From Candidatus Omnitrophota bacterium (lineage in GTDB: Bacteria > Omnitrophota > Gorgyraeia > Gygaellales > Profunditerraquicolaceae): 64,000 bases of DNA. Below are positions 12,001 to 36,000 of the stretch, piece by piece. Location of the stretch: assembly GCA_041662125.1 (NCBI GenBank), contig JBAZTA010000002.1, forward strand, positions 76,154 through 140,153, written 5' to 3'. The stretch's first letter is position 1, and each line of letters starts with the position of its first letter. The position numbers and the translations under genes are program-made. Under the pieces are notes generated by a model, which did not search any database, was not told where the DNA came from, and worked only from the letters and a program-made list of their open reading frames with translations.

Positions 12001-15000
12001 TGCTTTTGTGTTTCTCTGCGGCAAAGAAGGCCGGGATATTACTGATAGAAAAGGTGCCCAGGTGATCCTGGATGTACGAGCAGGATTGGGCAAAGAAGTG
12101 CAGGCTGTTGCCTTGCCCGAGGTAAGCAGATTTCTGGAAACCAGTAATGAGTTGGCTGTTCCTTTTAAGGGAGAACGGGCGAATGCCTTCGCTGAATTTG
12201 AAGAATTTATACAGGAAGAAACAGAAATTTTAAAAGAAAAGATTAAAACGTTTATCTGGGGTAAAAAAACAAACAAGATCAACAAAGAGGTCGTTTGGTT
12301 TCAGCATCGGATGTATAAGATCGCGACGATGCTTATTAATCATTTTGATAAATCAGGGTCGGTACTGGTTCAGTTGTTCCTGGACCAGTATGTCCCGGCG
12401 GATAAAGAGCAGGGCGGGTTAGAAGAAGCTATGCGGCAGTTTGGTTTAACCCATTGGATAATTAGATTTGATAATGGTTCTCAGAGGCCAACGTATGTTA
12501 CCCATGCGTTACGGCATCAGGTGAAGGAGTATAGCGAAGAAATAATAAGTTTTTGCAGGAGGAATTTGAAAGCGTATATGCCGCCTATTGGTGTTCCGCA
12601 GGCCCGCAATAATATTCTAACTTCAGAGGATCAAGCGTTCTTAAAGCATTTAGGGGTGGTTAATAATCAATCCAGGGGAAGTAATCCACCCGCAGCTGCT
12701 CGCGCGTCTTCGGCTGTTTCCGTTACTGCCGTGAACTTTCCATTATGCGGATACGTTGAGGAAGGCAGGATTTTGGCGGAAAAACGCCGTAGGGATATCG
12801 TCAACCCCCTGACTGCCGCACTTGACCTCTTAGAAAAAAGAAAAGTCTGGGGTAATCTTTTGCCGGCAGGGGCTAAGTTTAATTTTACCTACGCGTTTTC
12901 CAGAGAAAGCGATATTTTTGCCTTAAGCGCGCAATTCAAGAATGTGATAGTTTTGCCTTTAGAGGAACGCCATAATGCCAGCTTACTTTCATTTATTATT
13001 CGTCATTTTATTCACGGGAAATTCATCCGTGAGGAAATCTCTCTTGATGATAAAAAATCAAAAGTATATCGAGGAGACTTGATTTTTCTGTTGAAACTTC
13101 CTGATCAGGAGCGCGAAAATATCATGGCTTCTTTGCGGCGCTATGATTACCCGAATATGGATAGCTTTTTAGAATTAAAGGATGCTTTGGAACAAGAAGA
13201 CCTTTTACGGTTATTCGCGCTTGTATATAACGGGGGAGATATAAAGAATGGATGTGCTTTATCTATTGGTAGGAAGTTTCAGGCGCGTATATTTCAGTCG
13301 GTCATCCCGAAACTGACCAAACTTGGTGTTTCAAGGGGGAGGGTGTTGAGCCTTATCCTGGGCCTGGCGCGTGTGGCTCAGACAACTGAAGAATTCTGGA
13401 TGCTTTTAGAAGGGTTAGCCTCGATCCCCGATTGGGTAATATGTATCCCTGAAGGGAAAAAAGCTGACTTGGGTGTCTTTGTTACAAAAATGGACCAGCT
13501 GCTTTCAGAAGGAATATGGGCAATTCATTATAATCAAGCGGTATGTTGTAAAACACTCGTTGATTCGGTAAAGGAAACCCTCGAACATTTTTGGGAATTC
13601 AAAGATTTTCAGGATGAAGCGCCTAATTATCATGCAAAGAGCCGGGAGAACTATTACGCAGACCACCTGTGTATGTTAAAAGGGTTCTTGGGCCAGATTT
13701 CCGGGGTGCATAAGTTTACTTTTGTATTTAAGGATACCATTGATGTGCTTTATTTTAAGGACCATCCTTTAGGCTTGGAAGCAGTGAACCCTGTGTATAT
13801 CGCCTGCGGCGATAAAAAAGAATGCGACGGACAGGGATGCGGCTGTAAAACGATATTTGAATTTAAATATTCAGCCCGTATGGAACATCTTGCCCGGCAA
13901 ATAACCGGTTATAAGACGAGAGTTTCAGTTTTTGGGCTGATCAGCAGCGCGCAGGAAAAGTTTATGAGACAGGAGAAATTAACCAGGGATGAAGAGATAT
14001 TAAGGCAGATTAAGAATATCGTATTTTTTGCTGAGTATGACGGAGGCGGGTTGATTGCAAAACTTAATCATTTTGTTAGGCAGTATTATCACAAACGAGA
14101 CCCGTTCAAAGATAATAAGCGCTTGTGCGAGCGTAAATCCTGGAATGAGGGCGGCTTTACCGTCCGTTTCACCTTGGGAGAATTTAAGATGTTCCTTAAA
14201 GAAAATGAAGTGCCTGCTTCTCATTTGAACTGGGCTTTTGACCGGCTCGGACAGCATTATCGTAATAAAGGATTTGATGTTTATATCAGTATCAGTAACC
14301 CCAAAGGGAATGAAGAAGAGAATGCTTCTTGCAAGGAAAATATCTCTCGGCGCAGGACAAGCTCGCCAATAAGTAACCAGGGGACTAACGAGCAATCAGT
14401 TTCGCTGAAAAAGGAGCCAATAACCGTTAAGTACGGAGAAAGGATATTAGTAGGACGCATGTGGCGAAGGGTGGTTACGCTGCGTTTTGGCCATGGCCGC
14501 GTAGGGCTCTTGGATGATATCTTGCAGGCTATCGGTGATAAAACTTTTGTGGGGTGGTTAGAATATTTGCATAATAAGCGGCCGAAAGAATTAAGTGTTT
14601 CATTGGAGACGGTAGAAAAAGATACTATGCGCGCGATCATTAAGGAGTTAAAGCGCGTTGAAGATTGGCAGGACGCCCAGCAAGACAGCCTGCCGCGGCA
14701 AAACTGGCTGATGAGGTTTACTATCCCGCATCAACCCGCGCAATTGTTGCGGATCACCCGGTTGCTTCGGGAGAGGGGCATTAATATCCAATCATTTATG
14801 ACGCCCACCTTTTCCCAATATCACCAGAATATGCGTTTTATTATGCAGTTAGGGATCCCTGGAAACTGCCCTTCTGACGTAGAGTCTGTTGTCCAAGAAC
14901 TCAAGAAACATCTTAGTGATATCCCCGATTTATCGATGCATCAGGCTGAACTGGTCGACTGGCTGGTGGAATATTTAACTAAAAAAATACCGGTTAATTT

Positions 15001-18000
15001 TAAAGAGGAAACTGTGCGCCGTTTCCGTGAGGCATTAAAGATCATAACCAGGCGTCACCTGGGTGAATCGAGAAAGAACAAAAAAGATTCATATATGATG
15101 CATCCGCTTGATGTGGCGATAATCGCGGCAAACCAATTTGGTATTCGCGACGAGGGTTTATTAGAGATGATTATTTTGGCGGCGCTGCTGCATGACACTA
15201 TCGAAGACGGCGATATCAGTGACGCAGAATTGCGCAAGAGATTTGGTGATGATATTTATGCGATTGTCAACTTGCTCACCAAACGCAAAGTTAACGGTAA
15301 AGCTGACGAAATCGCGTATCTGCGTCAACTCTGTGCTGCTGTTGGAGAATTAGGCTTTATTGCCAGGTTGATCAAGATCGCCGACCGTATTCATAATCTG
15401 CAAACTCTGGCTGGTGTTGAACATGATAAAGATTTTCATCAGAAAACCATGGTTTCGACACTTGCTGTTTTTATACCCGAGGTAATTGATACGCTTGATT
15501 TTTATGCTCTCGCTGACAAAGAGCATGAGCGCGTATTACGGCAGGCTAGAGGAGTTTTCGCGCAGCAGGTTATTGATACGGCAATAGAATTACATTTCTT
15601 GAATCGAAAAGGCGAAGTGAGCTTTAAGAATTTTAAAGAGTCCAGATTAAACGGCGAAACGGGAAAACGTCCGCGTTTAATCGGGAGGGATTTAAAGAAT
15701 CTGTTTAAACGTATGCAGCAATTGGCCTCTTCAATCAAGGCAAGTTCTAGCATCAGCGCAAATCCTGTTGCCTCCCCCATTACAGTTGAAGAAGTCAGGC
15801 GCCTGGTGCGGGAGCATTTGTTGCCGGTTACCGGCGCGCGGCATACCTTAAGCCATGGAGATGATGTTTCTGACCTTGCCGGGTATTTAGCTCAGCATTT
15901 AGGGTTAGCGGAGTGGGAATCGATGATACGGATTGCCAGCCAGCTGCATGATGTCGAGAAGATACATAATAGAGAAGTATTGATGCTGGTTAATTTCCCT
16001 GGCGATTTATCCATGAATCAGCGGTTATTTGTACAGAAATATCATACTACCCCTCCGTTTATGGGAGTTAAGGCAATGGGAATAGAATTAGCGCCTTTTG
16101 TAGAAACTCTGATCGAGTTTCATCACCGCCCTCAGATGTGTAATGGGAATAATGCTATAAATACGGCTGCGCTTTGCCTTTCGTTGGCAGATCTGATCTC
16201 AGCGATGAGCGCTCCCCGGCCTTATTTTTATGTGGGAGGCAATATTGAAGATAGTAACAGTATTCCTGCTTGGCTGCGTGGTTTCTTATCCGCCAAAAAT
16301 ATTGTATTGGAAGCGCGCGTCTGGGAAGCGATCGAAGATATGGTAGTTGATAAAAGAGCCCGGATCCAGCAGATCAACGGGCTGAAGGCTGATGCGGTCG
16401 CTGATACCGCTAAGAGTTGGTTTGTTTGCGGGCAGACCCAAGAGTGCCTTGACGCCCTTGCTGAACAGATCCAAGAGTCTCGTAATCAGCAGAGAATAAA
16501 CCGTTTGTTGACTATACTTGTTGATCCAGTTGTGTCTGCGGTTTTAAGTGATGGAGAAATGAGGGCGCTCTTTGCGAAAGTTTTGTCAGCAGCACATTCA
16601 AAAGGGGAGTTAGTAGTAAATCATATGAGTGTTTTAGCTGCAATCCCCGCAATTCCCCGCCAATTTAAACAAATCTATTCAGAGATCATTTCTCGTAGCT
16701 CCTCCTCACCGCTGGCGTATTTAACAGCGGCAAAAAAATTATTTACTATACCACTTACTATTTTATTTGTAATTCCTTTGACGCTGATTTTTATAATAGC
16801 GAGTATTTTACACGAGTATGTTCACCTTTTAATGGCTAAGATATTTGGCCTGGAGACAGGAAAGGTGAGATTATTTGTGGAAGATTCGAGTTCCAATGTA
16901 GAAGTCATGGTGCAGGGAGCAGAAAACTGGAAACTTGTTTTTATATATTTGGCTGGTCCAGCTATGGATTTATTTTTAGGGGCAGTCTTTTTATTCTTGA
17001 TCTACTTGAACGGTTTTTCCTGGGGATGGCTAAAGATTTATGTTAATGTTGCACTTTTATCAGCAGCGGGGCTTCAAATACAGTCAGTAATTAATAGTCT
17101 TAACCCCAAATATAGCACAGATGAAGGCCTCAAGAGCGACGGTTATTTAGCTTTGGAGTGTATAAGAAATATTAAGGCAGGCAATAAATTTTACGATGGT
17201 GATAATTTTGATAGCTCCTCGCCGCTGACTCATTTCAATTTATCTGAGTTTGCGGATAAGCTATTAAGAAGAATGCGTGGGAAATATATACGAGGGTATA
17301 GGTATTTCTATGAGATTGCAGAAGATAGCCGTAAATGCGGTGCTTTGTGGGTCAATGATTGTAGGGTGGATGCGAATATTGGTAAGGGTGTATATGATTT
17401 TGTTTTTCCCCACCCCTTTGACCAAAATCTTGTAGTAAGGATAAGCAAATCAATTGATCTCTGGCGCCCAGTTTCAAGGAAAAAAGAATTCCAGAGGTTC
17501 CAGCAGTTGGCACGGCTCGGCATCGGGCCGCAAGCCTTCGCCTGGTGGATGCGTGATCAATACTCTTTTATGCTTGTAGAAAGAGTACAGGGCAATTCGC
17601 TGGATAAAATTGTTCAGAAACGGCTTCTTACTCAAGGAGAAATTAACTTTCTTAAGAGACTTTTGGATGTTTTGATTGAAAATAGGATTTATATAAGCGA
17701 CTTTAAACCTGCTAACATTATGTTTACTTCAGAGAAGGCTGTTATCTGTGACGCAATGTGCGCTGAAAACGCCCTTGCAGATGATCGCGCTGCACTCGCA
17801 GAGCGCTATGTTCGTATGATGCGTCCGGATCCATGGATTGACGTTGATCCTGATTTCGAATTAGAGAGGTATTTGCTTTCTTCTTCGCCGCTGGGTGAAG
17901 AAAATAGAACCATCCCCTTTTCTAAAATTGCCTCTTTGAGAGAAAAGGGTTATATCAAGAGAGAAGAAGAAGTCAGATTTCTTGCGGCACAATTAAATTC

Positions 18001-21000
18001 TAAAGATATGGCCACAAGAGAATCTGCAGGCCGCGCCATAATAGATGAGGTACTTGGAGAAGAACATAGCAATTTGCGCCTCAGGGCTTTTAAGATATTA
18101 CTCCCCATTATTGTTCCAAGAGTAATGAAAGCAGGCGCGAGGCTGCCTTGCTGGGAACAGGTCGATCTGCATACTCACACGGTAGAGTCTGACGGTTATT
18201 CTAATCCGGCAGCGGCTATCCTGGAGGCATTTGAGCGCGGTATGAGCGGATTGGCCATTACCGACCATAATACCTTCCCCGAAAACAATGAAGCTTGCAG
18301 GGCGGTTAAAATGCTTAACGATCATCTGCGTTCGTTCGGAAAAATCTTTAACCTTATTCCAGGCTTAGAGATAACCACTTATTTTGAAGGGGTAGTGGTG
18401 CATCTTTTAGTTTATCTGCCAGGGTATTACCGACGCCGTAAAGAATTATTGAAGTTTGCCTCGGCGAAGGCGCTTTTTGATAAGTTTTTACTTCACGATA
18501 GAGAACAAGTAAAGCAAACCAGGAATTTAATGGAAGCGATAAATGAGGCGTATCCTGATTTACAGATGCAGTGGCAGGATGTAGTGGCGGGTAGCCGCGG
18601 GAAAATCTACAAAATTGAGGCTACCAACGCGTTGTTTCGGAAATATCCTGATAAATTTAAAGAATACGGTAAAGCCAAAGATCTCTGGCATAAATGGCTG
18701 CCGTCAGAATTAAGGAAGAAAACAAAGGTAAACGTGGACTATTACGCCTCTTTTGAAGAAGTGATCGCATTCGTCGCGCACACCGGCTCAAAGCTTGCTA
18801 TTGCCCATCCGAATGAAATTCTAAGCGAAGAAAACAAGCTAAACAAAAAGAAAACATTTCCAAGGCTGCTTGAGCATTTGGCCGAATTAGCTAAACGGGA
18901 GATTATCAATCCGAAATCTTTGTTAGGCGTTGCCTATTACAGCGAGAAACTCACGCTTAAGAATTCGTTGCCTGATAAGCAGGTGCGTGGATATGTGTAC
19001 TATCACTACAAAAAAATAGTAAGCCGTTATCCATTCCTCAAGGGCCTATTTTTGCTTTTGCCGGAATCAGACAGCCATGGAAAGCTTTCTACTCCTGCCG
19101 GCAGGGGCAGAGATTATCCGCGTAACAGGCAGGTATACACAGGCAAGGTAATGCAGAGGGTATACCTGCCTGTTCCGACGCGGCTTGCATCTTCAGCGTT
19201 GAAAATTAAAGATATGTTTTTCTCTTTGAAGGGCGCAATACAGTTGACAGAATGGGATGATAATAGAACCGGCCTAGAAAATTATTTAGGCAAGGTTGTA
19301 TTTCCAACCGGCAGATTACATGAGGTGCGTAGTTTAATAGAAGAAAATGTTCCGCTGATTAAGATTGCGGTGGAAGGCACACATTCTCAAGAGCCGATTC
19401 CCTGGCAGGTATTTAACACCTCATTTAGAAAAATTGGAAAGAGCTTCAGCCGTGCGCTCGGATGGCCTCTGCGCCGTAAGATTAATCAATTAGCTCATTC
19501 TAAGATCAACCAGCCGTTATATGTGCTTGATTGGGGAGCCGGCAATCTAAGGGCTGCTGTAAGATTAGGGAAAATGCTCAAAGCAAGAAATGCCTATATC
19601 ATCGGCTTTGGGCAAGATTATGACACGCGACTGATTAAATGTCCTTATGATAACGTAGTGTATATTATTGATTCTGCGCCGAATTTGTTTAGCCGCATAG
19701 AAAAACTTCTGCCCGCAGGCCATACGCTTGATGTAGTTTACAGCTATCTCGGTCTGGGGCATCTGTTATGGAACGATAGAGCCGGTTTCATAGATTATCT
19801 TGAGAAATTAGCAGGATTGCTTTCACCCCATGGAGTGATTGTATTTGATGTATATGGTCAAGAACGAGATGTTTTTCTACCCTGGCGAACCCGCTTGGAG
19901 AAAACGTTTAGGCATTTTGAAGTTTCTGGTGAAGTAAAAAGAATTGTTAATGGGAAGGAATCTGAATATCGAGTGGCATTTTTTGAAAAGGATAGTGCCG
20001 CCGCTGCGCTGGATACAATAGGTCATAATACTGTTAAAGAATCAACAAGCCTTAAGATGTTAAGGTCTCAAGTAAAAGATTCCTTGCCTGTTGGAATACA
20101 AGTAATAGAAAAAAAATACAATGGCGCGAGTTTCCTTGTATCAACATTGAAAGTATTCTTTTCGGCTTTGCGAGGCGGGCACGTAAAGTATATTGTGAGC
20201 ATTTTCGCATTAATGTTAATCTTGCAGGTAAAATGCCCTTCCATTCTGCCTCAAGTGAACAAAAGAGGCGAATTAAGAGAGATAGTGATAAGGCAAGGTG
20301 GCTGGAATTTTGATTTGGCTATTTTTATAACTGGGGTAATTCTTACCTTGCTAAATTTTATGTCAGGTTTAGGGGCGAATATTCTGCCTTTTACTTCCCC
20401 TTATTTGCTGGTGTGGGTACTTAATAAATATTTCAATAAAAAACAAAGAGATAGGCTTCTTATACATGAGTGGTTGCACGCGTATCAAATAATCTTGATA
20501 TATCATGCGGGACGTAATGTGAAAAGATTCATTACTACACATATGGCTGCACTTGAAAACAACACAGCACAATTCGAGTCTGCATTGTTAAGAGACGGTG
20601 TATATATTCCTGAAGTATTACAAAAGTTTGAGAAAGAAATGAAGTCTCTGATTAGGATTTTAAGCGGTCCTGAATATAATCTTGCGACTTCTAAAACCCG
20701 TGCCCCTCATTCCGATAATACAAACCCTGTTTCCTCGCCGCTGACAGTAACAGACGGTTTTGAGGAAATCATTATCCCAGCAGACAGACAAATTCGGGCG
20801 CATATACGCCGGCAGAGAGCAGATGATACAAATGCCGACAAGCCAGTGGTAATTTCTGTCCATGGTTTAGGCTGCGTTATTGACCCAAGAAAGCTTCTTC
20901 GGTATTCTTTTCAGGAATGGCTGGGCTGGAGGCGTCCGTATTACTGGCAGAACCTTACTCATGAACAAGGTTTATTGAAGCGTGCGGCAGAAGAGTTTCA

Positions 21001-24000
21001 CGTTATTGCCTTTGAACATTTTGTGCCTACTTGGGAAAATGCCTTGTTAACGTTTGAAGAAAGGGCTGCGTATCTTACAGATGTCCATCAATACGTTTTA
21101 GATGAATTTAGCATAAAGGGGAAAAGTCTACCGCAGATATGGATGGTTGAGAGTTACGGCGCTGCTGTATTTGTTGAGTGGCTGTTGAAGAATGAGGCTG
21201 TATTAGGCCATAGCGATGGATTGGGCATCGCTCAGATATGTTACATTAATCCTGTTTTTGCTTTGCAAGAGAAAAAACAAAAGTCATTGCGTATAGTGTA
21301 TCCTTTGCATCGTTATATGGCTTGGTTACACGACAAAAAAACTTTTATGCTGGAACAGGTCTATCAAAGGTCTGCCGGGATAAAACCTTATCATGTTATT
21401 TTATCCGAGCGTCTGGAAAACGTAAGCAAGCAAATTACCCTTCCTGAGTCACGAGTGATCGCGCTCTCAGAAGATACTGTCGCTGATTTCAACGCATTAC
21501 CTGATTACTTAGCGCGAAATATCGAATACGTTACCGGAGGAGATCATTACGCTGCCATGACTAATCCTGCGGTGGTAAAAATGGCGCTTAGACATATCGG
21601 CTCTGCCGCCTCGCCGCTGGCGCTTCAGGATAAGCTACCTCTTAAGTCTAGTTATAGCAGTTCGTCAGGAATAAATGGTGGGAATAATATGCAAAATCTT
21701 CCTGAAAAGATTCTTTTAGGAAGACGAGAAGAAATTTTACGCGACATTAGGAGCACACCACTTAAAAAATATATTGGCCATCTTTGGGAGGCCGCCCTAA
21801 GAACCTGGCATGTAAGAATAGAATTTCTCCTTCGTGGAACGAAAGGTTATATATGTCCTTTTAGAATCCTACAACATGCTTTTTACTGGGATGATGGAGC
21901 TGAGATGGTTCTGAGAAGAATGGAAACTTTGGCAACTTTACTTTGTTTATCTGGAGAAGATGCTGAAAAATATATCGAATTTAGAAGATATTATGGTTTT
22001 AACCACGATCTTTTGACTTTGGAAACTACACTCGAAGATTCTTTGGTAGAAATAAAGGGGCTGCAGGATGTATACAAAATGCAGATAAAAGACAAGGATG
22101 GGGTTCAGACTTTATTGTTAGTGGGGATAAATTGCGAGCTTAAAAAAGATAGATATTTTTATTTCACTTGCGCTGATATTGGGTTGAGTGAAGAAAAGAT
22201 ATATCATTTATTCGATTTTTGGAAAGGAAAATATTTAGGAAAAATAGATGGGAAGCAAGGTCAAGCAAACGTTTTAGTAAAGCCATCAGGGTCTTTCTAC
22301 CTTCTCATCAAAGAAGCGATAGAAGATGCTCCGCAGGTGATAGCCAGTTCCAGGGAATTAACCGGGGGAATTCAGGATATTGAAAGCATCCATTGTGACA
22401 AAAACCAACGAGTTCTAAATATACGCTTTAAACAAATAAGAAATCAGAACGGGAGGATTTATTTATATCTACCTGTTGGAATAGAGGTGGCACATTTAGA
22501 GTTTAAAAATATTAAAGGGTGCTATCAGGAATGGAAACAAGGAGAGATACTGCCGATTGTTGTCATTGGGGTAGGAAAGAGAGCGAGAATAACATTACGC
22601 TATACGAATGAGCCAGATTTGGGGGCTATTATTCAACAAAAAATTATGGATATTAATAGTAGATTTGGTGATTTTATAAGAATAAAACAATTTTCAGGGT
22701 TTGATTTCAACCTGAAAAGAGATTGTATGTTTATCAAGAAGTGGCCGCAGGGGCTGCTTGGTGAAGTTCTCGAGCTTTTATCGAGCAGACATACAGATAT
22801 AGACAATATCGCAAAGCAAATCGTGTGGGGATATATTGATCGAATGCTTTCAGGGGAGGACTTATCTGATTTTGAAAAACAGGTGTACGATTCTCAGGTT
22901 TTCGAACATAAGCTAAATAAACAAGCGCGCATTTGGTTAATTACTCACATCAATGCGAAGAGGGCATTAATCGGAATTAAAGAAATATATCCTTGTTCAG
23001 GAGAGATAGCCATGGTTGACGATTTTGGGGGATTTTCAATTCATAGCAGAAGAGAACATTACACTCATTTTTCAATTTGCAGCGCCTATATTCATACTGA
23101 TTTGAATACTAAGCCGGAATGGGATGATATCGAAATGGAGAAATTGATTCCCTGGGACCAAGAGGATGACCGGTATGTGGGGTATGTATTAGTAACTGAT
23201 CACAATAAAGAAGAACAAGGCAAGGCTACAGTTAAATTTGTGTTTAAAACTTCTGACTGCAGAAGATACAATTGGGATATTCATAATGTCAAAATAGACT
23301 TTTATGAATATGTAGAATGGGCGAGTATTCCAAACGGCGATTTAATCCTTGATGTAATACCTAAAAAAATCAGTAGAAACTTGAAGAATCATGAAGCGGA
23401 TCCTCCATTAGATTTGGTACAAACCAGCAGCGAGAAGCGAGCACCGAAAGGCGAACATGCCTCCTCGCCGCTAGAAAAAGTTGAAGCAAGAAATGCAAAA
23501 ATTCCTTCAGTGCATATTGACTTTGAACATAGGACTTGGCGCGTATTTCTAAGAGAGCGGGTACCTCCTGGCCTTGTATGGTTGTGTGTCCAGAACGCTG
23601 ATTTTGGAGGATATGATCTAAGGAATTGCGATTTGTGGAGGGTATATATTAATCCCGTTCTTGAGATAAGAAATTGGCCGAAAATTATCTCAATGGCCCG
23701 TAAAGCCGCTATAGCAGCGGGGGTGCCTTTTGCGTACAAATATCCTTGTTCAATAGAAACTGTGTCAGCCGAAGAAGATGTGTTAGTGAGAGAATTTCTT
23801 AGTGACCAGAGACAAACAAAGATAGTTTTCTATTTTGTGTCTGAAGAGGATGCTTTGAAGTTTATTCAGCGTTTGCAGAAGCAGGATGGCTACAGCGAGA
23901 ATGAGGCCCGGGGGCAGGGTCCTGTCTATAATACCCCGGCGTTAGACCGGCTAGTTTCTTACGGTAAAGGATTTAAAGAAGAGAGATGGAGATTTGAAAA

Positions 24001-27000
24001 GATTATTGCTTGGCGCACAATAGAAAATGCATTTAATGCGATATATAACAGGAAGGACTTGAAGATTGCATCGTTGTGGACTGCCGTAAAAGTAGCCGTT
24101 AATAGATTAACAGGCAGAACAGAGGGGGCGCTGGCAAAACATCTTCCTACTGCAGCAAAGACAATAGATGAAGGCGCCTTGGAAGCATTGTTTGCTTTGA
24201 AAAAGCCCGCTGATATAAATTCTCTTCCTGAGCAATTCGGCCCTGTAAAAGCAGCACTTGAGTTTTTAAGAAATAACCTGCCGCAGGATGTTGAGATTAT
24301 AATCGCCGGCGGTCCGGTGCGCGATTTATTGCTGGGGTTACGTTTTAACAGAGGCGATAACGAAGCGGGGATTAAGGACGTGGATGTAATTTTAAGAAGC
24401 CCTTTAAGGAACGATCGGGAGTTAAGAGCGCTTAAGAGAGAACTTAGCAGAAAAATAGAAAGTGGGCAAGTCAGCGGCGCAGAATTAGTAAATTCCCACA
24501 TCAAGTTTAACGGCTTATATATAGATATACTTAACGTAACTATGGATAAGAAGCATGTTATCGCGTACCAAGGAAAGCCGATGGATGCGCGTATTTCTAT
24601 AAATATATTAGGCATATCTTCGCGCGGAAGATTTATTTATACCCCGCAGGCATTGCGCGATTTGCAGGAGGGGGTAATCAGGTTTGTAGGCCCAGACGGA
24701 CGGGAGATTACCGGCACAAAGGCGCTTTCTGTGCTGATGATTATCCGCGGGTTGATACTGAGGCATCAGTTTGGTTTTGCATTTACTCCATATGCGGCAA
24801 GGATTGCCGCGCGCTATGCTTATGGCAAGGTTTTAGTAAAAGATATGGAATTTAGGGAGGCTACTGATATTTTGCGTGAAATCAAACTCTTCGAACTCGT
24901 CCGCTATACCCGCAGGGTTTATTATTTGAATGGATTACTGCATTCCTTATACAAGAAGGCGTTGGATCCGCTATCGGTTACGAGGGACTTGGAGGCGATG
25001 GGCTTAGTTGGAATATTGCGGCGGTACGTTGATTTCTCCGGCCTTGAAATTCAGAGGATGTCTGGAGTTTCCAGCTCCGCCGCCTCGCCGCTGGTTTTAC
25101 GCATCAATCTTCTCGATGCGTTCAGGAAACAAGCATTTGGGCCGCAAGGCGGTATGGTTGGTATCGCTTCTTGGTTTGGAGATACATTTCATGTGGTAAC
25201 TAATGAAATTTTACATCCTCTGGCTGCTCAAATTGCGTATGAGATAGGCACGCGCGCGCATTCCGATAGACAGTTAGTATATTATGTTAACGCCGGGCAG
25301 GAAAAAGATATAGAGTTTTTGATAAACACTATCGCAAAATACATGGGGATTCATAAATATAATGGATTTGAAATTCACGTCGTAGTTACTAATGTTGATC
25401 CTCGTGGCATAGATAAAGCGAATGCAACATTGCAAAGGCTCAAAGAATGCCATCGTAATCTATTTACATTGGATTATATTGTTTTACCGTTGAATAACAC
25501 ATGTGATAAAAACGTAAATAAGTTCACTACAACCGTAAGAAGTATAGGTGGCTTTAATGGGATTATGTGTAATGTCGGTGGTGATATATGGGCACATGGC
25601 ATTGTTGCTCAGCTGCCTGGCATGCTTAGGCCTGGAGGATGGCTTCAGGTAGATGCCGACCAAAGATTTCTCGCCAAGATGCTTTGGTATTCTGGAAACA
25701 AAGGTGATTTCAGAAAGACGATTATATCCAAAGGGAATACGTTGTATTTAAGGTACCGTGACAATAACGATATTCTTAGCGAGTCTGAGAAAATCGGCGC
25801 TTCGCCGCTGGCGCAAAGACGCGTTGAGAACATTTTACCGGTCAGACGACAAGGGAAAGAGTCCGTATTAATTATCATCCTTGACGACTTTGTAATAGAC
25901 AGAGAAAGGCCTTATCATGTCCCTCACGGCATATTAATAGAAAATTTGTTAATTAGATATTGCGGCAATAATAAGCGTATACAGCTGAAACGGGTGAACT
26001 CCGAGATCTCATTGAATAAAACCATTTCTGTTTCGACATTGCAGCAAATAGAAAATATTGTAAGTGGTAATTCTTACAAATATATACTGGTGAATATATC
26101 CGACTATATGACTTTTGATAATAGCGTTTATTATGATATCCATAAAATAAATGGAATATTGCCTTTTGAATTTGTATTTGAACTGGGAAAAAAAGGCGTG
26201 TTTTTTGTAATGTGCGCGGGAAACGGGAGGCAGAATAGTCCGGGCGGCTATAGATATTACAAGCATGACAGATTGGAAAATGTGATACCCGTGGCTGCTG
26301 CAGAAATAAGCAAGACTGGATATACGAAGGCTTATTACAGTTGCTTTGGTCCTGATGTTATGTTTTGCGCAGATGGCAGCGATAGCCAGAATGCGCAAGG
26401 TACTTGTATCGCGGCGGCAAGAATATCCTTAAAGCTGTCTTCGATATTCACCCGTTGGTCTGTTAGCGAAAAAGAGGGACTGGGAATTATTGAAAGAGAA
26501 TGTATCGCCATGCCAAATGATTTTTATTTTAGACATGGCTTATTAGGCGTCGGATATGTAGAAGCCGCCTCATCGCTGGCGCCAGAAGAACGGATAAATC
26601 AACTACTCTATAGCAAGGGTATAGAAACTATTTTCGAGAAGCATAAATCAAAAAGCCCAGCATTAAATATCGAAGAATGGAAGCGAAATTTAGCAAACTT
26701 CTTGACACTTGGTTTTAAGCCGATGACTGAAATGTTTGATGGCATAGATCAGCGCAGTGATAAGGAGAAGATAACGTTCCTGCGGCAGATGATACAAGAA
26801 ATGAAAGAAGGACAATGCCGCTGCAGGCAGTTAGACGGTTTAGAATTAGAACATCTTTTTTTGCTGGAGCAACCAATTGATATAGACGCGGTATTGAGCG
26901 TACATGGTTATCTCTTAGGTAAAAGAATAATGTTTTTAACAGATCATGAGTATTTCGAGAAATATCGCAAGTTTTATGAGGAAGATGAATATATGCGTGA

Positions 27001-30000
27001 AGTTTCGCTTTATGCCGCGAAAACCGCATATTTGTTTCTCTGGGTGGCCGAGATATTGTTTCGGAATCATACTTCAACCTCCCGCATTTCTATATTCAGA
27101 GATCATGTTTTTGTCAGGAGAAGCATAAGAGACGATAATGATTTTCCTCAGGAAGAAACATTTACCGGCATACCACAAGAAGAGCTGAGTTTGATAGCTA
27201 ATTTTATTAGAGAAGATATCGATATTAGTTTTAATGGTGACAAACGGCTCTTTTATTATATTAACGCTGGGCATCAACCGGAAATCACATTCCTTATAGA
27301 GAGCATCGCCGACTATATGAAGCGTAAAGGGTATAGAGGATTTAAGGTACATGTTGTAGTAACAAATATAGTGCCACGGCGCGTAGAAAAGGCTGCAGAA
27401 ATACTCAATAATCTCGCCGCTGAGTATTCCTCTTTATTCGCGTTAGATTACATTACTTTTCAGTTGGATAATACGTTTGATGAAGGAGTGAAGCGATTTA
27501 TTCAATGTGCAAAGAATTTCGGAGGTTTTAACGGTATCTTGTGCAATGTCGGTGGAGCTACCGGCGCGTATGAGGTTTTGGCTCTTATACCTCAGGCATT
27601 GCGTAATGATGGCTGGTTGCAAGTGGATGCAAAGAAGTATACCTTGGATTGTCTCAGAAAGGCTCCAGAAGAACGAGTATTTAAATATATAGATAAAAGC
27701 TCAACTTATTTGACGATTTTTTACGGATTTATCAGCTCTTCGCCGCTGGAGTTAGGTGCATCCTCTAATTCTTCTGCGGTGGCTGCTCAATCTGGCGTTT
27801 ATTCTTTGGCGCAATTAACACAGCGATTAATAGAGGGAAGGTTTTACAAGTCGTTAATTCCTGCTAAGTCCGGGGCTGGATTGTATATTGATGATATGCT
27901 GGAAAATCATATGTATCCGCAGCCGTTGGCGCCGGAGAAAAGGAGTTCTGAAATAGATATCTTGGGCAAAAGAGGCATACTTAATTACTGTAAATTTCTT
28001 TGCTCAAGGTTCCCCGGGTTATTTATGAAATTTGGAGAATACGGAATTCTTGATAATGCATGGCGGCCAAAGCTATTATCTAAAGAGCAGGAGCGCGTAA
28101 TTTTTCTAACAGAAGTATCAGGACAGTATGCCAATCCCAGCCTTCTCTGGCATTCAGTAACCCATCTTGCGCAGATGTCAGTTGCTGCAGAACGGTTCCG
28201 GGGAGCGCGTGTTTTAGATTTGGGATGCGGAAGGGGAATCTCTTCGCTCTTTGCCGCCTTGCTTGGCGCAAAGACGGTAGTTGGAGTTGATAATGATCCT
28301 TCAGTAAAAAAGATTTTTGAAACACAAAGAGAACTAAATCAAAGCTACTCCGGAAGATCTGTATTTATTGAGGGTAGTTTTGCCGAAGCCGCTGTGACTC
28401 ATGAACTGGAGAAGTATCTGCCTTTTGATATTGTTATGGCAAATATCGGCCCGCAGCAATACGGCGATGCAAATAAGGAGGCGATCGAACTGATTGTTCG
28501 GCTAAGGCAAAAAAGATGGTCAAATGATTTTGTAGTGATAGGGAGCGGTTCTGGTATGGGGCTAACCGCATATGAGCATTGTGCAGTGCCTGGATATGAA
28601 TATAACTATCAAGAAGAGCTTGATTTTCTTCGGCTTTACTTTGCAATAAGTGAACCTCATATTATTGTCGGGCGTAGCCGTCCGTCTTTATTGTTCCCGG
28701 AACAATGGTTTCTTACTACAAGTTATTTACTCGAGGCTGCGCAGTTAAACAAATGCGCTTCTCAGCTCCCCAAAATAACATTAGAAGCTGTTATTGCAGA
28801 AATAAATAATATATCGCCTATTTATGCTTGTGCAGTAATATTGATTAACGCAAGAATTGTAGCTGGTAAGAATATTATGCGCTGTTGGATGCCTTCCTAT
28901 TATCAATATCAGATAGAGGCATCGGAAGATACAGATCCTTTTGAATTATTGAAGTTTGCTGAGCGTGTTTTACGGATTGATCATCATTCCGGTTTTGCTC
29001 CGAAAGTCAGTGAGCTGTTAAGAAAGTTTGAGAAGATATCTGCTGCCTCGCCGTTGGCGTCCTCTATAGAGCTTCTTATATTTGATTTGACTCAAACACT
29101 TTGCGAATATGGAGAATTTGGAAGAGTAAGAAAACAAATATCCTATGCATGGGCTATCCAGGAGTTATCCTGCCGAAACAAAAATTTAACAACAGCTGGA
29201 TTAGAGGAGATTATCGTAAAGCTTGATAGCCTTACCGGGGCGCTTGCATCACTGGGGCTGTCTCTTGATAAATATTTTGATTATTTAGGCCTCAATCTTC
29301 CTGTCACAGCTTATCCCGAGAGTGATCCGGAATTGCGTCAGGTTTTACTACAGGAACAAAAGAAAGGTTATCGTTTGGCTCTTGCTACTAATAATGGAAA
29401 TCTGGTTACTCAAAATATACTTCATAGCCTTGGGGTAGAGGATTTATTCTTATCTGTTATGACACAACAAAGTATGGGCAAGGGTAAGCCCGATCCAGGT
29501 ATATTTTATGAATTGTGTAAGCTGCAAGGTGTTAGTCCTGAACGGGCGGTTTCAATCGGCAATAGTAGGCAACATGACCTGGAAGCCGCAGCTCAAATTG
29601 GTATGTGGGGGTTACACGTAAATGGGCCACGAGAACTTAAGGATACTCTGCCTGGCCGGCTCGTTGAATTAAAAGAATTGAGAAATAAAATCCTGAGAGG
29701 GCGCAAGGTGATAGTGCCTGATTATTTGGTTGTACCTGTAAATTTGCGCAGCGCCTCGCCGCTAACACAAAATAAGGATGGTCTTAATTCTTTTCACAAA
29801 GCCGGCAGCTCAGCTGTCACGGCGAATTTAAAAACAAAAGAATTCTGGACAAAAGCAAAATGCGAAGAAATGCTAAAGAATCCTCCATCCAATGTTAAAG
29901 ACCCTAAAAACTCGTCTCATTGGGTCAGTGCTGGATATAGCGGTATGATAACGTTCGTATGCAGGGAATATGGAGGTTGGCCTAAGTTTATCGAGAGCAT

Positions 30001-33000
30001 GGGATATGAGCCTATTATAAGGTCCAAAGAGGTTTGGAAGCAAAAATATGAAAATTGGGGAATAGTTCAATCAATCGTTCCTGATTTAATCAAACATAAT
30101 GCTATTATCGGATACGGGAGGGTTTTAGAAGATGATGAAGTAAAAGCATTGGCTGAAGAAGTGCAGAATGGCAATAAGGCTGCCAGAGAAGTATTAATAG
30201 TTACAAATGTTCCTATGGTCATATATCGAGTGATACGACAATACCCCAGTTTCATTAACGAAAGAGATGATTTAATTCAGGTAGGTATTTATGGCCGCGG
30301 TGATAGAGTAGGCGGTCTTGCTCGCGCAGTAGAACGTTTTGAGCCTGAGAGAGGAATTCGGTTTATCTCTTTTGCATTACAATGGATTGACGCGGTTTTA
30401 TTACAAGCGGTACGAGAAATATTAAATTTACAGAAAAAAGAATTACTATGTAATTATAGCTCTCGTGAATCTTCCCAAAAAGACCCAATCAATTTAATAC
30501 CCGATAAAGCAGATGTATTTAAAATAATATCAGGCGACGCCGATTTACGCGCAAGACTATTCGAGGCTATTGAATATTTGCAATTGGAGATTTCTGAAAG
30601 GGATAAGGATATTTTGTCGCGGTTGCTTGATGCTGAAAAACAGTCATATATAGCCAACCATTATAGGATAAAACCTCAACGCGTACAGCAAATTTTTAAA
30701 AGATTGACCAAAATGTTAAAAGAAATAATTGATTCAGATGAAATTAAATATCGGTCACGCAGTGCCTCCCCGCTAGAAAGCGCAGAGCGGTTCACGCACG
30801 GACCGTATCCTTTCCAGGCTTATTGTTTCGAATATGGATCGGTAAGCGTCAGTGGATACAATAGCCAAGACAATATGATTGAAATTGAGTTTCCCTATGC
30901 GCGAAAAAAGCCGGCGTTGAAAGCGTATTATAACTCTCATAAATTTGCCTTATTAGGTTCAGAATCACATAGGCGCTTAATCGAGGAGAGATACATAAGA
31001 ATATTTAATAAAAGCGGGATAATTGACCAGCTGATTATCTATAATTATGTTAGAACGTTTTTTTCTCAAATATATAAGGAAACCCGGCTCTATTCATCAA
31101 TGCCGTCTTTCTATCAGGACGATACTGATATTTATAGGTTGAGCAAAATGCCTCAAGGTCTTAAGATTGCTTTCGAAAAAGTATTTCAGATGATAAACAG
31201 TGAGTTTAAAATTTCACCGCGAAACTTAGAAATGGCAGCGCGTATGACATTTCTTTTAGGAGATGTGCACTATTTCCAGAGCGGGAAAACTCGTTATTTT
31301 CTGCCTAACGATATTAAAGATTATCTTTTAGAAAAGATTTATCACGAGGCAGAGAAATGCATCTTCACTTTGCAGGCTGATGCAACAAAGTTGCGCGATA
31401 GAGATATGATCGGTTCATTGGCTCGGCAAATAGCAGATTTATTACAGAGTAGAAATGACGCCTTTGATATTATTAGTGTTGTGCCGTATCTAAACGAAAG
31501 AGAAAATAGCGGGATTGTTCCGCTTACTCGGGAGGTAGCTGGTAATACGCAGTCTACGTACCAGGAAGTCTTGAAAGCAATAGAATTTGAGAAGAAAGAA
31601 GAGGTGGAGAATGGAGGCGTAAGCAATAGGGTTCCTGAATATGAGGTTACGGATGTGGATTTGCGAGGCAAGAGTGTGCTTCTGCTTGATGATGCAGCCG
31701 CAGAAAGAAACGTGCATCTGGCTTGTATGGAAAGAATTCTGAGGGCAGGAGCTACTCAGGTGTTTGTAGTAAGGATCGGTAATGATTTTCAGGAAGTTTC
31801 TGATCAAAAACAATCAACCTCGCCGCTAAGATTGTCACAAGATGATAATAAAGAAGTTACCCGTCAAATTAATCTCAAACTAGAAAGCTGCGGTTTTAAT
31901 ACCTATAGGACACTTAAAACTTTTAAATTCTGGCCATGTTTATATGAAAGAGAATGGGTAATGGTTAAGGAGAAATCCGGCACAGACTATTATTATGGTT
32001 TTATCAGGTTTGGCAACCTGATATTTATTGATGAGCATATTTACTCTGATTTTTTAGGCCCTGATCTTAGAGACGTTTTGAAAACCAATTCCATACGATT
32101 AGTAAATAGCAGCGCTCATAAGATGTTTTATTATTTCCCTACGTATACGTCTCTGGCGCTTTTTGCCATGATTCATACTGTTGGTGATATGCATGTAATT
32201 GATTGTGGTTCTGGCCGCGCTGAATTATCCTTGGCGGCTCTTCGATTAAATTCCAGCGTTGATTCAATTGAGATTGATAGTACTTTGCTAGAGATCGCAA
32301 AGCTGCAAATGAAAAACAACAATTTTAAAGAGGGGATTGATTACCGTTTACTTAACGGCGACTTGAAAGATCCCTCTTTGATTGTCAAATCCCTTCAACC
32401 CCGTGGAATGAACCGGGAAATCGCTATCGTCTCAAATATTGGTTCATGGGGGATGTATTCGGTAACGAATGCCGATAGTATGAAGCTTATTCCCTATCTC
32501 CCGAATGTAAGGTTATTTATCGGCTCTGGATATAAGATTAACGAGGATGACAAATATAGAAGCATGTGTAGTCATATGGCTCTTATTGAGCAAAAGTACG
32601 GTTTTCATGTTGAGTTAGAAGTTGGTTCTTATAATTGTGCTGCCTGGGTGGCTCGTAAACCTCGCAGCAGTTCGCCGATAGATAGGCGGTTTCTTGTCCG
32701 CGAATTAGAAAAATGCCTGTATCAAATGCCCTATGGCTTACAGGACAAAATATATCCTTCTGCATTCAATGCCCGGCAAGAAAAACAAACATACGGCAAC
32801 TTCATTAAAAATCAGCTCTCCCGCATCGAAAAACAATTGCCTATTGATACGATGACGGATATTTCTAATCAAGATCTGGGTTTAGTCGTTGATCAGGCAA
32901 AGCGCCTGCATCATCAAGGGAAAATGAAGAGCCTGGCGTTTCTGTTAGCCAATATAGACAGGATACATGAAGCATTCGAAGTCTGCCTGCTTGATCAAGT

Positions 33001-36000
33001 TGTTTGGGTTAGTAAAAATGTTAGTTCTCAGGAGCAACTGTGTTTTGATAATTTTCTTAATGAAATATTTGAATACGGATTATGCCGAGGCACGACAACT
33101 AGCCTTATTGACTATGCGTTGCGCTGCAATAAGGGGCTGTTGTTTAATCCTCGTCGTAGTGACCGTACCTTATTTACCCTTGTAGAAACCACTGAAAACT
33201 ATTATTGGAGTGATGTTGCTTGCAAGAAAAATGATGTGATTTTTTCCAGCCTTGACTTCAAGAGATACAAGAGTCTTCCCGGAGCGATCAGAAAACCGAA
33301 ACCAGTAATACTTTTTTTCGATATTGAGAAACTGCCTATGTTGATAGTGAGGGCAGGCGAGAAATTGGAAATTGTCAACGGCATGCCGCGGGATATTGCC
33401 GAAGTATTCACTGCAAAATTATCACGCAGGATCGATATCGTGCGGTCGCTCATGTTTGGTTCTAAAGTCAGCATTCTTGAGGCGCTGGCAGAAGCTGGGG
33501 TGCCCGACAAAGAATATTCTTGGCTCTTTAGCCATACGGGCTGGAATGAAGCGTTATTAGCCATTTCAGGAAAATCTTTACATTCCTCTTCCCCGTCTGA
33601 GGATGATAAGAGCTCCAATAATTATCTAAAAACTTCTTTGGAGGGTGTCCCCTTGGGTATGCCGCGCAATATTTATGAAGAGCCGGATTTAGTGTATCCT
33701 TTTGATGAAAGAGGATTGATACGTCTTAAGCCAGCAGAGAATACTTTGGATCATTTAAGGATAAAATGTGCAGATGGATTGTGTTGTTTCCTGGATCCTT
33801 TTCTTGGTTCTTATCCGGATATTGAAGATGTGTTGGCAGATAAAATTCGTTCTGACTGTGAACCCCTGGGAGAAAAAATATTCTTAGCTTATTCCCCTGA
33901 AGCGATCAATGTGAAGGATATTCCTCATAAAGGTATTAGTATAAAGTGTGCGTGCGGGGGGTTAAGGACAGTATTTGACTATCGCTCTGAACATGGATTT
34001 AGTTTGTTCACCGAGTGCGCTATTTATAAAGACAGGCCTGATGAGCCTTGCCGGGCATTTCCGTATTATGACTATTGTATGTATAGCAAATATCTGCAAA
34101 AGGAAAATATGGTTTTTTATCTGCTCAGGGAATCCGCATTATCTGCAGGCAAAATTATTGCAGATTTGAGCGCTCAGCAACAGACGAAAGAGGGTGTATT
34201 TTATACGGCTCAAGGTTATGCAAAGTTAAAGCAGATGTTTTTATCAAATGGCAGATTGTCTCATATAATTCGTCTGGCAATACGAGATAAGTTTCTTGCT
34301 TTTAGCCCTCAGAAAGACGATCGCATTAGTTTTTTCAGCGAGCAAAATGATATAAGGGGAACGTCTCCGATCGCTAGTTCTTCTCCGCTGGAGGGGACTG
34401 CGGATTTATCGCGGCCTAAAATAATAAGAGACCGCACTTCAGCCCGCCTGTGTAATCTAGAGGAATATGCGGTAGTAAATGGGGAGAAGACAATAGGTAT
34501 CGGCAGTTCTGAACAGGTGATTCTTTATTTCGGCACCAAAGACAGGCCTGTTTTTGACAGGGATGGCAAGGAAATATTTAATATTTTAAGTTCCTGGTTC
34601 ATTCAATCTTCAGATGAAGTCAATTGTTCTTTTATAAAGAGCCCCTACGGCATAAACGCAAAGTTAAGGCATCAGAGGTTAAGTTTGGCCCGCGGCAACT
34701 TTAGGATGAGAGAAAATGATTCCTTGATCGTCACGCTTGATAACGTGAGAGAAAAAGCAGGGATAGAAATTACTCTTGAGAAAATAGAAAGGAATTCTGA
34801 TAGGATCTATTTTAAGGCCAAAACTGTTGGGAGTGTGTCCGTATTCACTCTTGAAGATGTGCAGGAAGCTTTTGAATGCAGGGAATTAGTTCCTTTAGGC
34901 AAGCAAAACAGGAATATGGCACGGGCGAACCAATGGTTCATCTATAATAATCCGCAGTTAAGCGAAATAGTCCCTGTCCCAGTGCGAAACCTCGCAGAAG
35001 GGCATTCTTTGGATACTACGAGCGGTTTTTGGCGCGACCTTACTAACGCCGAGCTTGAGCCTATGAAGCAAATGCATAAAAAAATTATGAATATTGCAGT
35101 TCCTGAAGAGATAAGCCGCTATTCAGATATTCCCCTGTTGGGAGATAAATTTGACAGCAGGCGCCAGGAGATCGCCAGAGAAATATCCGGATTTATCGAA
35201 GGATTGAGAGACCAATTAATTGAAAGAATATATTTGGCGAATGCCCGCATAACGAGAAAAGAAGTTGTGAGGGGAGTGACAGGAGAATGGATGGATTACG
35301 TGCTTGTTCATAAACTGGCAGAATTATCACATGAAGGAAGGCAGCAGTTCGAGAAGTTCCTACAGGAATATGTGCCAGCCAGAGACTGGGTTGTTAATAG
35401 GATCGGGGATGTTTTAAAAGAGTTAAAGTTGTCCTGCCGTAATAATGAAGAAAGAACGACTGAATTGCCGCGTATTTATGAAAGTATTGAGATGGGAAAA
35501 TATAAATTAGCGCTCGCCTTATTGCCCGATATGGATCATAAGGACGCGCGTGTTATTTTTCCGGGGTCTGCTGCTGCGCGGGAAGGGATGCCTTGGATCA
35601 TTAAAAGCTGGGATCCCCGGCACATGATTAATTATAGTAATTTTTACCGTCTCAAGACTTTTGGCAAAAAGATGATGGTTGCATCTGATTCCGCGCGCAC
35701 AGTTCTTAAAGCGCTTATGAAATGGCAGATTTATGAGCAATCTGTGGCAAGAGATAGCGAAGGGGCTTTGTTTACGCAAATTTCAATCCAGCTTAATTCT
35801 TCCGAAGAATTGGTGAAATTGATCGAGGGATTATTCTTCAGTAAAGAATATTTCAGGTATTATCAATTAGAGTCCGTTATTGCCTCTCCCGCGCCGAATT
35901 TTGAGCTTTCAATATTAGCCGAAGATAAGCCTGGCCTCATAGCCCTGGTAATTTCGGCATTATCAGATTCCGGTATCAGTATGTTCAGGTTGGCTCCGCC

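Follow-up and report, generated by a model that had tools for sequence, protein, structure and literature searches.

Does a subtilase that carries cysteine in place of its catalytic serine remain a working protease and, if so, is the giant protein that contains it also its substrate? These questions are raised by a 64,000-nucleotide stretch of DNA from a Candidatus Omnitrophota bacterium (GenBank assembly GCA_041662125.1, contig JBAZTA010000002.1, positions 76,154 to 140,153 of the forward strand), referred to here as the window. A single stop-free frame crosses the window, and one of its modules is a compact domain of about 250 amino acids with the fold of the S8 peptidases, or subtilases. 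A preliminary description of this S8 module took it for either a natural thiol-subtilisin-type variant or an inactivated pseudo-protease, and proposed it as a candidate protease acting in cis. Based on the analysis described here, the best overall explanation appears to be a natural thiol-subtilase, embedded in a giant open reading frame (ORF) and processing the junctions between its modules; we give this explanation a probability of roughly 40%. Coordinates within the window are collected in Table 1.

A subtilase fold with cysteine in the serine column

The S8 module is read in forward frame 2. Its catalytic boxes are VLIIILDDF (containing Asp25), VPHGILIE (His39), VMCAGNG (Asn138), and GTCIAAARIS (Cys199). 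The last of these is preceded by the stretch VIPVAAAE...YYSCFGPDVMFCADGS, and the strand that leads into the serine box reads VIPVAAAEISKTGYTKAYYSCFGPDVMFCADGS. The Asp-like, His-like, CAGNG, and Ser-box motifs named in the preliminary description are all present in the translation, and the tgt codon that it placed at the nucleophile does lie in the Ser221 column. At the C-terminal end, GLLGVGYVE is the last conserved motif, and the junction AASSL↓APEE follows it (here and below, the arrow marks the junction point).

Sequence comparisons place the module among the subtilases. The match to the Pfam profile Peptidase_S8 (PF00082) scores 22.3 bits (E 9.6e-5), barely above the gathering cut-off of 21.8 bits, and covers module residues 126-187 only, stopping short of the nucleophile box. 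With Cys199 changed to serine in silico, the score becomes 26.1 bits and the alignment, now spanning profile positions 141-247 of 288, reaches from residue 126 to residue 206; changing Ala203 to proline as well brings the score to 28.1 bits. In BLASTP, the module aligns with subtilisin BPN' over 132 residues (E 3e-4, about 24% identity), the BPN' sequence having been checked through the positions of D32, H64, N155, and S221. This alignment pairs CAGN with AAGN155 (N138 with N155), GTC with GTS221, and FYFRHGLLGV with FYYGKGLINV. A phmmer search with the module alone found no match among the Protein Data Bank (PDB) sequences. A family profile made from the module and 12 homologues (A1) matches subtilisins DY, BPN', and Carlsberg in that collection at E values of about 1e-16, and aligns HG with His64, aagN with AAGN, and kGTSfaaP with GTSMASP. 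Of the four columns, that of Asp25 has had the least direct test, as the profile-to-PDB alignments shown begin downstream of it.

The predicted structure points the same way. An AlphaFold2 model computed from the A1 alignment reaches a mean predicted local distance difference test (pLDDT) value of 87.7 and a predicted template modelling (pTM) score of 0.89; a single-sequence run was unusable (pLDDT 30.1), and the alignment-based model was used in its place. The order of its secondary-structure elements is that of subtilisin, with helices beginning at His39 and Cys199 and a strand preceding Asn138. When the model is compared with the PDB by Foldseek, every one of the best 50 matches listed is a subtilase (best E 3.4e-7, TM-scores 0.50-0.65), and the alignments to solved subtilases show 12-17% identity.

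Judged from these alignments and the model, the module is a true S8-fold (clan SB) domain, with cysteine in the Ser221 column and with Asp, His, and Asn in theirs. The preliminary description had named a Peptidase_S8 profile alignment and a structure prediction as the ways to check it, and a cysteine away from the serine column, or no S8 hit, as what would speak against it. Since an S8 match exists and Cys199 falls in the Ser-box column, as the extended Pfam alignment of the serine revertant confirms, its assignment holds. The profile match, the alpha/beta fold of subtilisin, the Asp-His-nucleophile order, and the oxyanion Asn are all found, but the G-T-S-x-A-x-P box of the serine-nucleophile S8 peptidases is replaced by G-T-C-I-A-A-A. 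Because Cys199 stands in the serine column and Ala203 in the proline column, the module is an S8 homologue and not a serine peptidase; by alignment, it is a cysteine-nucleophile variant of the subtilase fold.

The homologue subfamily and the paired substitution

Among 1.84 billion representative proteins, a full HMMER scan found only 17 matches to the module (best E 1.4e-18, 35% identity). One of them, P0006 (3,870 amino acids, 12-14 short matches), was rejected as a false positive: it matches through Cys-spaced repeats whose spacing imitates that of C178...C186...C199 in the module. The remaining 16 make up a compact S8-like subfamily of domains of about 235 amino acids that are 24-41% identical to the module and lie in proteins of 329-4189 amino acids. 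A PF00082 assignment is precomputed for several of these proteins, and the only named homologue is MDP3732027.1, from Candidatus Omnitrophota. Word-index searches with the module alone and with a multi-module stretch of 3,060 amino acids gave no match, and with the A1 profile only two weak generic S8 matches.

The nucleophile column holds serine in all 16 homologues and cysteine in the module. Four residues further on, proline is found in 15 of the 16 (the other has threonine), whereas the module has Ala203. The Asp column holds Asp in 11 of the 14 homologues aligned, and the His39 and Asn138 columns are invariant in the family. Overall, the module agrees with 29 of 40 family-conserved columns, the homologues ranging from 24 to 39. 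Of its 11 differences, five lie on the nucleophile helix (S199C, P203A, V205I, A210S, and L213F). The residues of the substrate strand are atypical too, NISDYM compared with N-x-S-l-g in the family.

The module is also richer in cysteine than the ORF as a whole (2.3% versus 1.0%). Relative to the homologues, cysteine has been gained at module residues 135, 178, 186, 199, and 229 (window 26213-26499), including an Asn-to-Cys change in YSN.GP and an Ala-to-Cys change before AGN.

The change of serine to cysteine does not stand alone, and its partner has a precedent in protein engineering. In subtilisin BPN', the S221C substitution by itself gives thiol-subtilisin, a crippled enzyme of drastically reduced activity and an intrinsically poor amidase; P225A restores activity by relieving the crowding around the larger sulfur, and the S221C/P225A double mutant is subtiligase (PMC7921005). 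Cys199 and Ala203 reproduce this subtiligase-type arrangement, a cysteine at 221 with a small residue for Pro225. As far as can be told from the aligned sequences, the pair would be a sign of adaptation rather than decay.

The same columns bear on whether the TGT codon is real. This codon could stem from an error in sequencing or assembly, or from a TCT or AGT serine codon that underwent a private mutation: one base change suffices, and a single sequence is at hand with no orthologue for comparison. We regard such an artefact or very recent lesion as very unlikely indeed, as the frame is intact over 64 kb, a second independent change (Pro to Ala) is found at a functionally coupled position, and more changes lie on the same helix.

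A more serious alternative is that the Ser-to-Cys change inactivated the peptidase and left the module with a binding or scaffolding role in the giant protein. The drastically lowered activity of thiol-subtilisin favors this explanation (PMC7921005), as does the existence of S8 pseudoproteases (PMC7200643 and related papers), such as CspC and CspA of Clostridioides difficile. The subfamily itself includes members without the Asp or the His (P0011, P0012, and P0017), a sign of non-catalytic drift in the family. The 11 differing columns, clustered on the nucleophile helix, could equally reflect relaxed constraint, and the atypical substrate strand fits a loss of function as well. No orthologue that could attest the age and conservation of the cysteine was found in the genome, metagenome, and viral contig collections scanned. 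Together with the poor amidase activity of thiol-subtilisin, these points weigh against an active enzyme.

Set against them, Asp25, His39, and Asn138 are all kept, so that the module does not display the decay seen in the homologues that have lost Asp or His. Cysteine, the one replacement that still provides a nucleophile, is accompanied by the very change that rescues thiol-subtilisin, and overall conservation is within the range of the serine-bearing homologues. Because Asp, His, and Asn are retained, cysteine is the only other working nucleophile, and the accompanying Pro-to-Ala change is the rescuing one, the evidence from the sequence leans to a functional thiol variant. We consider an inactivated domain somewhat unlikely, and it is moderately probable, on alignment and model, that the module is a catalytically competent thiol-subtilase.

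The junction pentapeptide

If the module is active, its substrate has to be considered. A pentapeptide, [S/A/G][S/A]S[P/A/S][L/I/V], recurs in 41 copies in the 21,333-codon frame, compared with 1.7 +/- 1.2 copies in shuffles. Copies begin, among other places, at window positions 95, 16700, 17213, 21605, 25079, 25796, 26564, 27734, 29042, 58493, and 63638 (all forward). It lies inside none of the 17 Pfam hits checked and often falls 3-10 residues from the start or end of a domain. For example, the HAD domain begins four residues after one copy, the DFP domain three residues after another, and the ThiG domain ends at one. Conservation is limited to the five core residues, and the flanks are variable. 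A five-residue core without conserved flanks suggests a recognition site rather than a flexible linker of low complexity. Looser variants (VSSPL, TSSPI, VASPI, STSPL, and GTSPI) suggest, at the level of sequence, that the true number of junctions is above 41.

The S8 module sits between two such junctions. The preliminary description located its linkers as ASPL at 25802 and ASSL at 26567; the second position is correct, and the first is one codon off, ASPL starting at 25799. However, the two linkers are just 2 of the 41 copies, and every module is flanked alike, so that flanking junctions are not specific to the S8 module.

The motif also has a DNA-level side. The codons used differ widely among the copies, yet a 9-nucleotide core, TCGCCGCTG, encoding Ser-Pro-Leu, occurs 10 times (0.46 expected), clustered at 17-28 kb and mostly in frame at junctions. 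Codon usage within the motif is skewed relative to the rest of the ORF (CTG 50% versus 14%, CCG 67% versus 33%). That the motif arose purely as a repeat at the DNA level was rejected in part, given that the codons vary widely while the 9-nucleotide core is over-represented. Recent common descent of some junctions is one possible reason, and a role of the sequence at the level of nucleic acid is another. Since TCGCCGCTG is conserved as DNA, the conservation of the motif may be due partly to shared origin and not to selection as a protease site.

Other proteases were considered for the junctions. Pro at +1 blocks signal peptidase I. This enzyme, whose -3/-1 rule the small residues of the motif would fit, was rejected because Pro occupies +1 in 24 of the 41 sites. 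The M50 and Rce1/CPBP modules of the same ORF were rejected as intramembrane enzymes, whereas most junctions lie in soluble stretches. These two were observed as an M50-like module of 171 amino acids at 16781-17086 (forward; 24.3 bits, under the Pfam cut-off of 27.2) and an Rce1/CPBP-like module at 60362-60652 (forward; 58 bits). Both are of intramembrane-protease types, and each coincides with a cluster of hydrophobic segments.

The giant ORF around the module

The frame that contains the module has no stop codon in the window, a feature that the preliminary description does not mention. Each of the five remaining frames has 848-1855 stops, and GC skew is positive across the whole window. Pfam families recognized in it are FBPase_glpX, HEAT, HD, Peptidase_M50 (weak), PHP (twice), a PrmA-type methyltransferase, HAD, Sigma70_r2 (weak), ThiG, PRK, CheR, DFP, an Rce1-like family, PIG-L, and PolyA_pol (weak). 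With at least 21,333 amino acids and at least 15 distinct Pfam families, the ORF has the character of a giant multi-enzyme protein (more than 10,000 amino acids, many enzyme families). Its modules are sized like free-standing enzymes, and several profiles start at position 1-2 right after a motif copy.

The giant ORF is mostly soluble and probably faces the cytoplasm. The S8 module is surrounded by metabolic enzymes that are normally cytoplasmic, in a long stretch free of transmembrane-like segments, so that a reducing setting is plausible for it. It is the sole S8-like module in the 21,333 amino acids; a second was sought in the ORF and not found. Its four neighboring modules include no I9 prodomain or annotated partner, and Pfam and S8 searches of the window turned up no further soluble protease module.

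Table 1. Features of the S8 module, its junctions, and the surrounding frame (window coordinates)
Feature	Position	Strand	Basis or remark
S8 (subtilase)-fold module, 252 amino acids, no prodomain	25811..26566	+	translation, Pfam, BLASTP, family profile, structure model
Asp25 (GAC), equivalent to subtilisin Asp32; closes the first beta-strand (model strand 19-25)	25883..25885	+	family alignment, structure model
His39 (CAC), equivalent to subtilisin His64; N-terminus of model helix 39-51	25925..25927	+	invariant in the family; aligned to the His of HGTHVAG in BPN'
Asn138 (AAC), oxyanion-hole Asn in the CAGNG box, equivalent to subtilisin Asn155	26222..26224	+	16/16 homologues; aligned to N155; inside the Pfam S8 match
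Cys199 (TGT), nucleophile column, equivalent to subtilisin Ser221; begins model helix 198-215	26405..26407	+	alignments, structure model
Ala203 (GCA), position equivalent to subtilisin Pro225	26417..26419	+	family alignment; in silico reversion
N-terminal junction GASPL just before the S8 module; proposed P5-P1 of GASPL↓AQRR	25796..25810	+	motif scan; has the 9-nucleotide core TCGCCGCTG
C-terminal junction AASSL, directly behind the last conserved motif of the S8 domain	26564..26578	+	motif scan
TCGCCGCTG copies	101, 17219, 17885, 20735, 21611, 25085, 25802, 27740	+	mostly in frame at junctions
TCGCCGCTG, additional copy	27414	+	out of frame
TCGCCGCTG, additional copy	3755	-	
Stop-free frame, 21,333 codons, open at both window ends; fragment of a giant multi-enzyme ORF	2..64000	+	stop count

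Several repeats and minor features were seen in the same frame. Paralogous domains of about 160 amino acids adjoin the S8 module on both sides (25181-25663 and 27155-27637, forward; 43-49% identity). They look Rossmann- or methyltransferase-like (YY[VI]NAG..., VVVTN[VI], GGFNGI.CNVGG, GWLQVDA) and match no Pfam family or PDB sequence. Two PHP-domain paralogues (17882-19201 and 38030-39322, forward) are about 44% identical over about 400 amino acids, lie exactly 6,708 amino acids apart, and share the strings DLHTHT, IPGLEITT, and VHLLVYLPGY, which indicates module duplication inside the giant ORF. An unannotated repeated module family occupies 10628-12088 and 47279-50887 (forward): residues 3543-4029 resemble at least three tandem copies in residues 15760-16962 (24-39% identity). 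At 30224-30415 (forward), inside a junction-delimited module of its own, lies a weak match to Sigma-70 region 2 (18.5 bits, below the cut-off). On the reverse strand, an antisense ORF of 218 amino acids (23959-24615), the only listed ORF of at least 200 amino acids, lies wholly opposite the giant frame and is probably spurious.

Proposed action of the module

The junctions resemble subtilisin substrates, and by analogy the following course may be proposed. The module would fold within the chain, and His39 and Asp25 would activate Cys199. Junction peptides would bind as P4-P1 = (A/S)-S-(P/A)-(L/I/V), a pattern that resembles the classic subtilisin substrates suc-Ala-Ala-Pro-Leu/Phe. A thioester acyl-enzyme would form and then be hydrolyzed, leaving a cut after the aliphatic residue. 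The junction at the N-terminus of the module itself, GASPL↓AQRR, might be cut first, in cis, and subsequent cuts in trans would release enzyme-sized modules. The GASPL↓AQRR junction sits 25 residues before Asp25, and the autoprocessing site of pro-subtilisin BPN', AHAY↓AQSV, sits 32 residues before Asp32; by this likeness a cis cut at the N-terminal junction, followed by trans cuts, is geometrically plausible. Cleavage of the Omnitrophota giant proteins by resident proteases has been considered before, S8 and C39 domains being said to be ones that 'might cleave the giant proteins', with information on the cleavage points lacking (10.1101/2023.11.21.568195).

Several findings weigh against this proposal. 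The flanking junctions, as described above, are shared by all modules, and motif conservation may partly be a matter of descent. In 15 of the 41 sites the putative P1 residue is Val or Ile, beta-branched residues that classical subtilisins accept poorly at P1. Nor do the 16 other proteins that contain the S8 subfamily show enrichment of the motif (6 copies versus 2.5 expected, and 8 versus 6.7), so that the subfamily as a whole is not tied to it. The giant ORF, moreover, runs beyond the window and may hold further proteases. A candidate cis-processing role thus stays plausible by analogy, on a weaker case than the preliminary description stated, and it is doubtful that the module both recognizes the junction peptides and cleaves them.

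One of the subfamily proteins, P0008 (L001 10001-22570), is itself a multi-enzyme protein of 4,189 amino acids with a methyltransferase, DUF218, HEAT, and an S8-like domain that has serine. Around residues 44-70 it contains three tandem junction-like peptides, ASASPL-ALARSPL-AAAEASPV, although the motif is otherwise not enriched there.

An active thiol-subtilase might instead act on prey or partner proteins or on a regulatory target, the junction being a structural linker or the site of another enzyme. The occurrence of the S8 subfamily in many proteins of 329-4189 amino acids that show no motif enrichment would fit such a role, and it has been suggested that the S8 and C39 domains of the giant proteins 'may cleave other protein substrates' (10.1101/2023.11.21.568195). 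The lack of any further soluble protease module in the window speaks against it. So does the likeness of the P4-P1 pattern to canonical subtilisin substrates, and we consider another substrate quite unlikely.

The presence of both subtiligase changes raises the further thought that the module joins or cyclizes peptides, its thioester being resolved by an amine, as thioester acyl-enzymes favor aminolysis (PMC7921005). Such a natural peptide ligase or transpeptidase is very unlikely: neither a donor (ester or acyl) nor an acceptor suggests itself, thiol-subtilisin uses natural peptide bonds poorly as acyl donors, and the neighboring modules give no sign of a peptide-maturation pathway.

The module does share one arrangement with polyprotein proteases, in that it is an embedded domain and a short site recurs at the domain borders, its own included. 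By analogy, one may imagine a virus-like polyprotein strategy in a cell, in which a gene of more than 64 kb encodes dozens of enzymes and an embedded thiol-subtilase cuts them apart at (A/S)(A/S)S(P/A)(L/I/V) sites. We regard this full picture as unlikely.

Significance

Clan SB (S8/S53) is, to our knowledge, taken to consist of serine-type enzymes only, and no natural cysteine-nucleophile subtilase was found in the literature, in searches that were not exhaustive. The S221C/P225A double substitution was reportedly engineered by Wells and co-workers. If the module is active, it would represent a new nucleophile exchange in a classic fold, in which nature reached the same double substitution as the engineers, and it could be a starting point for ligase or protease engineering. 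If it processes a polyprotein, it would be the first cysteine-nucleophile member of clan SB, and the 41 junctions of the window would supply the missing cleavage map for giant proteins of the Omnitrophota type. If it is inactive, the giant ORF would contain an S8 pseudo-enzyme, and an explanation would still be needed for the junction motif.

Two studies of giant bacterial proteins leave open whether these function as a single chain or are cut up, and neither uses the word 'linker' or 'motif' for them (10.64898/2026.06.07.730766; 10.1101/2023.11.21.568195). Likewise, literature searches, which were not exhaustive, found no description of the junction motif. The pentapeptide offers explicit candidate cleavage points together with a candidate enzyme, and thus makes the question of giant-protein cleavage directly testable.

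Comparison with known systems

Compared with the subtilases of family S8, clan SB (BPN', Carlsberg, and DY), the module has the same alpha/beta fold and order of secondary-structure elements, the same Asp, His, and oxyanion Asn, a G-T-x nucleophile box at the N-terminus of a helix, and the C-terminal motif F-Y-x-x-G-L-L-G. It differs in its cysteine nucleophile, in alanine at +4, in having no I9 prodomain, and in a host protein of more than 21,000 amino acids. The spacing between Asp and His is also shorter, 14 residues compared with 32 in BPN'.

This short spacing is shared with the S8-like subfamily (P0001-P0017 except P0006), whose members are likewise embedded in multi-domain proteins. Common to both are the boxes VLP..R.G, hhhhD.F, HG, VN.S, NG.L, AGN, DNV, YSN.GPDV, GTS.AAP, and G.LG.G. 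In contrast to the module, the homologues have serine (16/16) and mostly proline at +4 (15/16), and their hosts are smaller (329-4189 amino acids) and not enriched in the junction motif. The engineered thiol-subtilisin, subtiligase, and peptiligase series shows the same two substitutions as the module, Cys at 221 and Ala at 225. Subtiligase is, however, a laboratory peptide ligase used with ester donors, whereas the module is natural, about 24% identical to BPN' (over 132 residues), and known from its sequence alone.

The host ORF resembles the giant proteins of Omnitrophota and the Archaeovorins, as a frame of more than 21,000 codons tiled by unrelated Pfam enzyme domains (10.64898/2026.06.07.730766; 10.1101/2023.11.21.568195). 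Giant proteins termed 'multi-enzyme metabolic cluster' reach 147,155 amino acids in Omnitrophota (10.64898/2026.06.07.730766), and such proteins are reported to include S8 domains, for which a role in cleaving them has been proposed (10.1101/2023.11.21.568195). HEAT repeats, methyltransferases, peptidases, and occasional transmembrane segments are further points of likeness.

Picornavirus 3C and coronavirus 3CL proteases also combine a cysteine nucleophile with a typically serine-type fold, lie inside a polyprotein, and cut a short site at domain borders, including their own. The analogy is functional only: the viral fold is chymotrypsin-like (clan PA) and that of the module subtilisin-like (clan SB), the viral cleavage is proven, whereas that by the module is proposed, and the host of the module is cellular, not viral. 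The S8 pseudoproteases CspC and CspA are like the module in combining an S8 fold with an altered catalytic triad. Their triad replacements are non-nucleophilic, whereas the module has changed the nucleophile only, and has changed it to another nucleophile.

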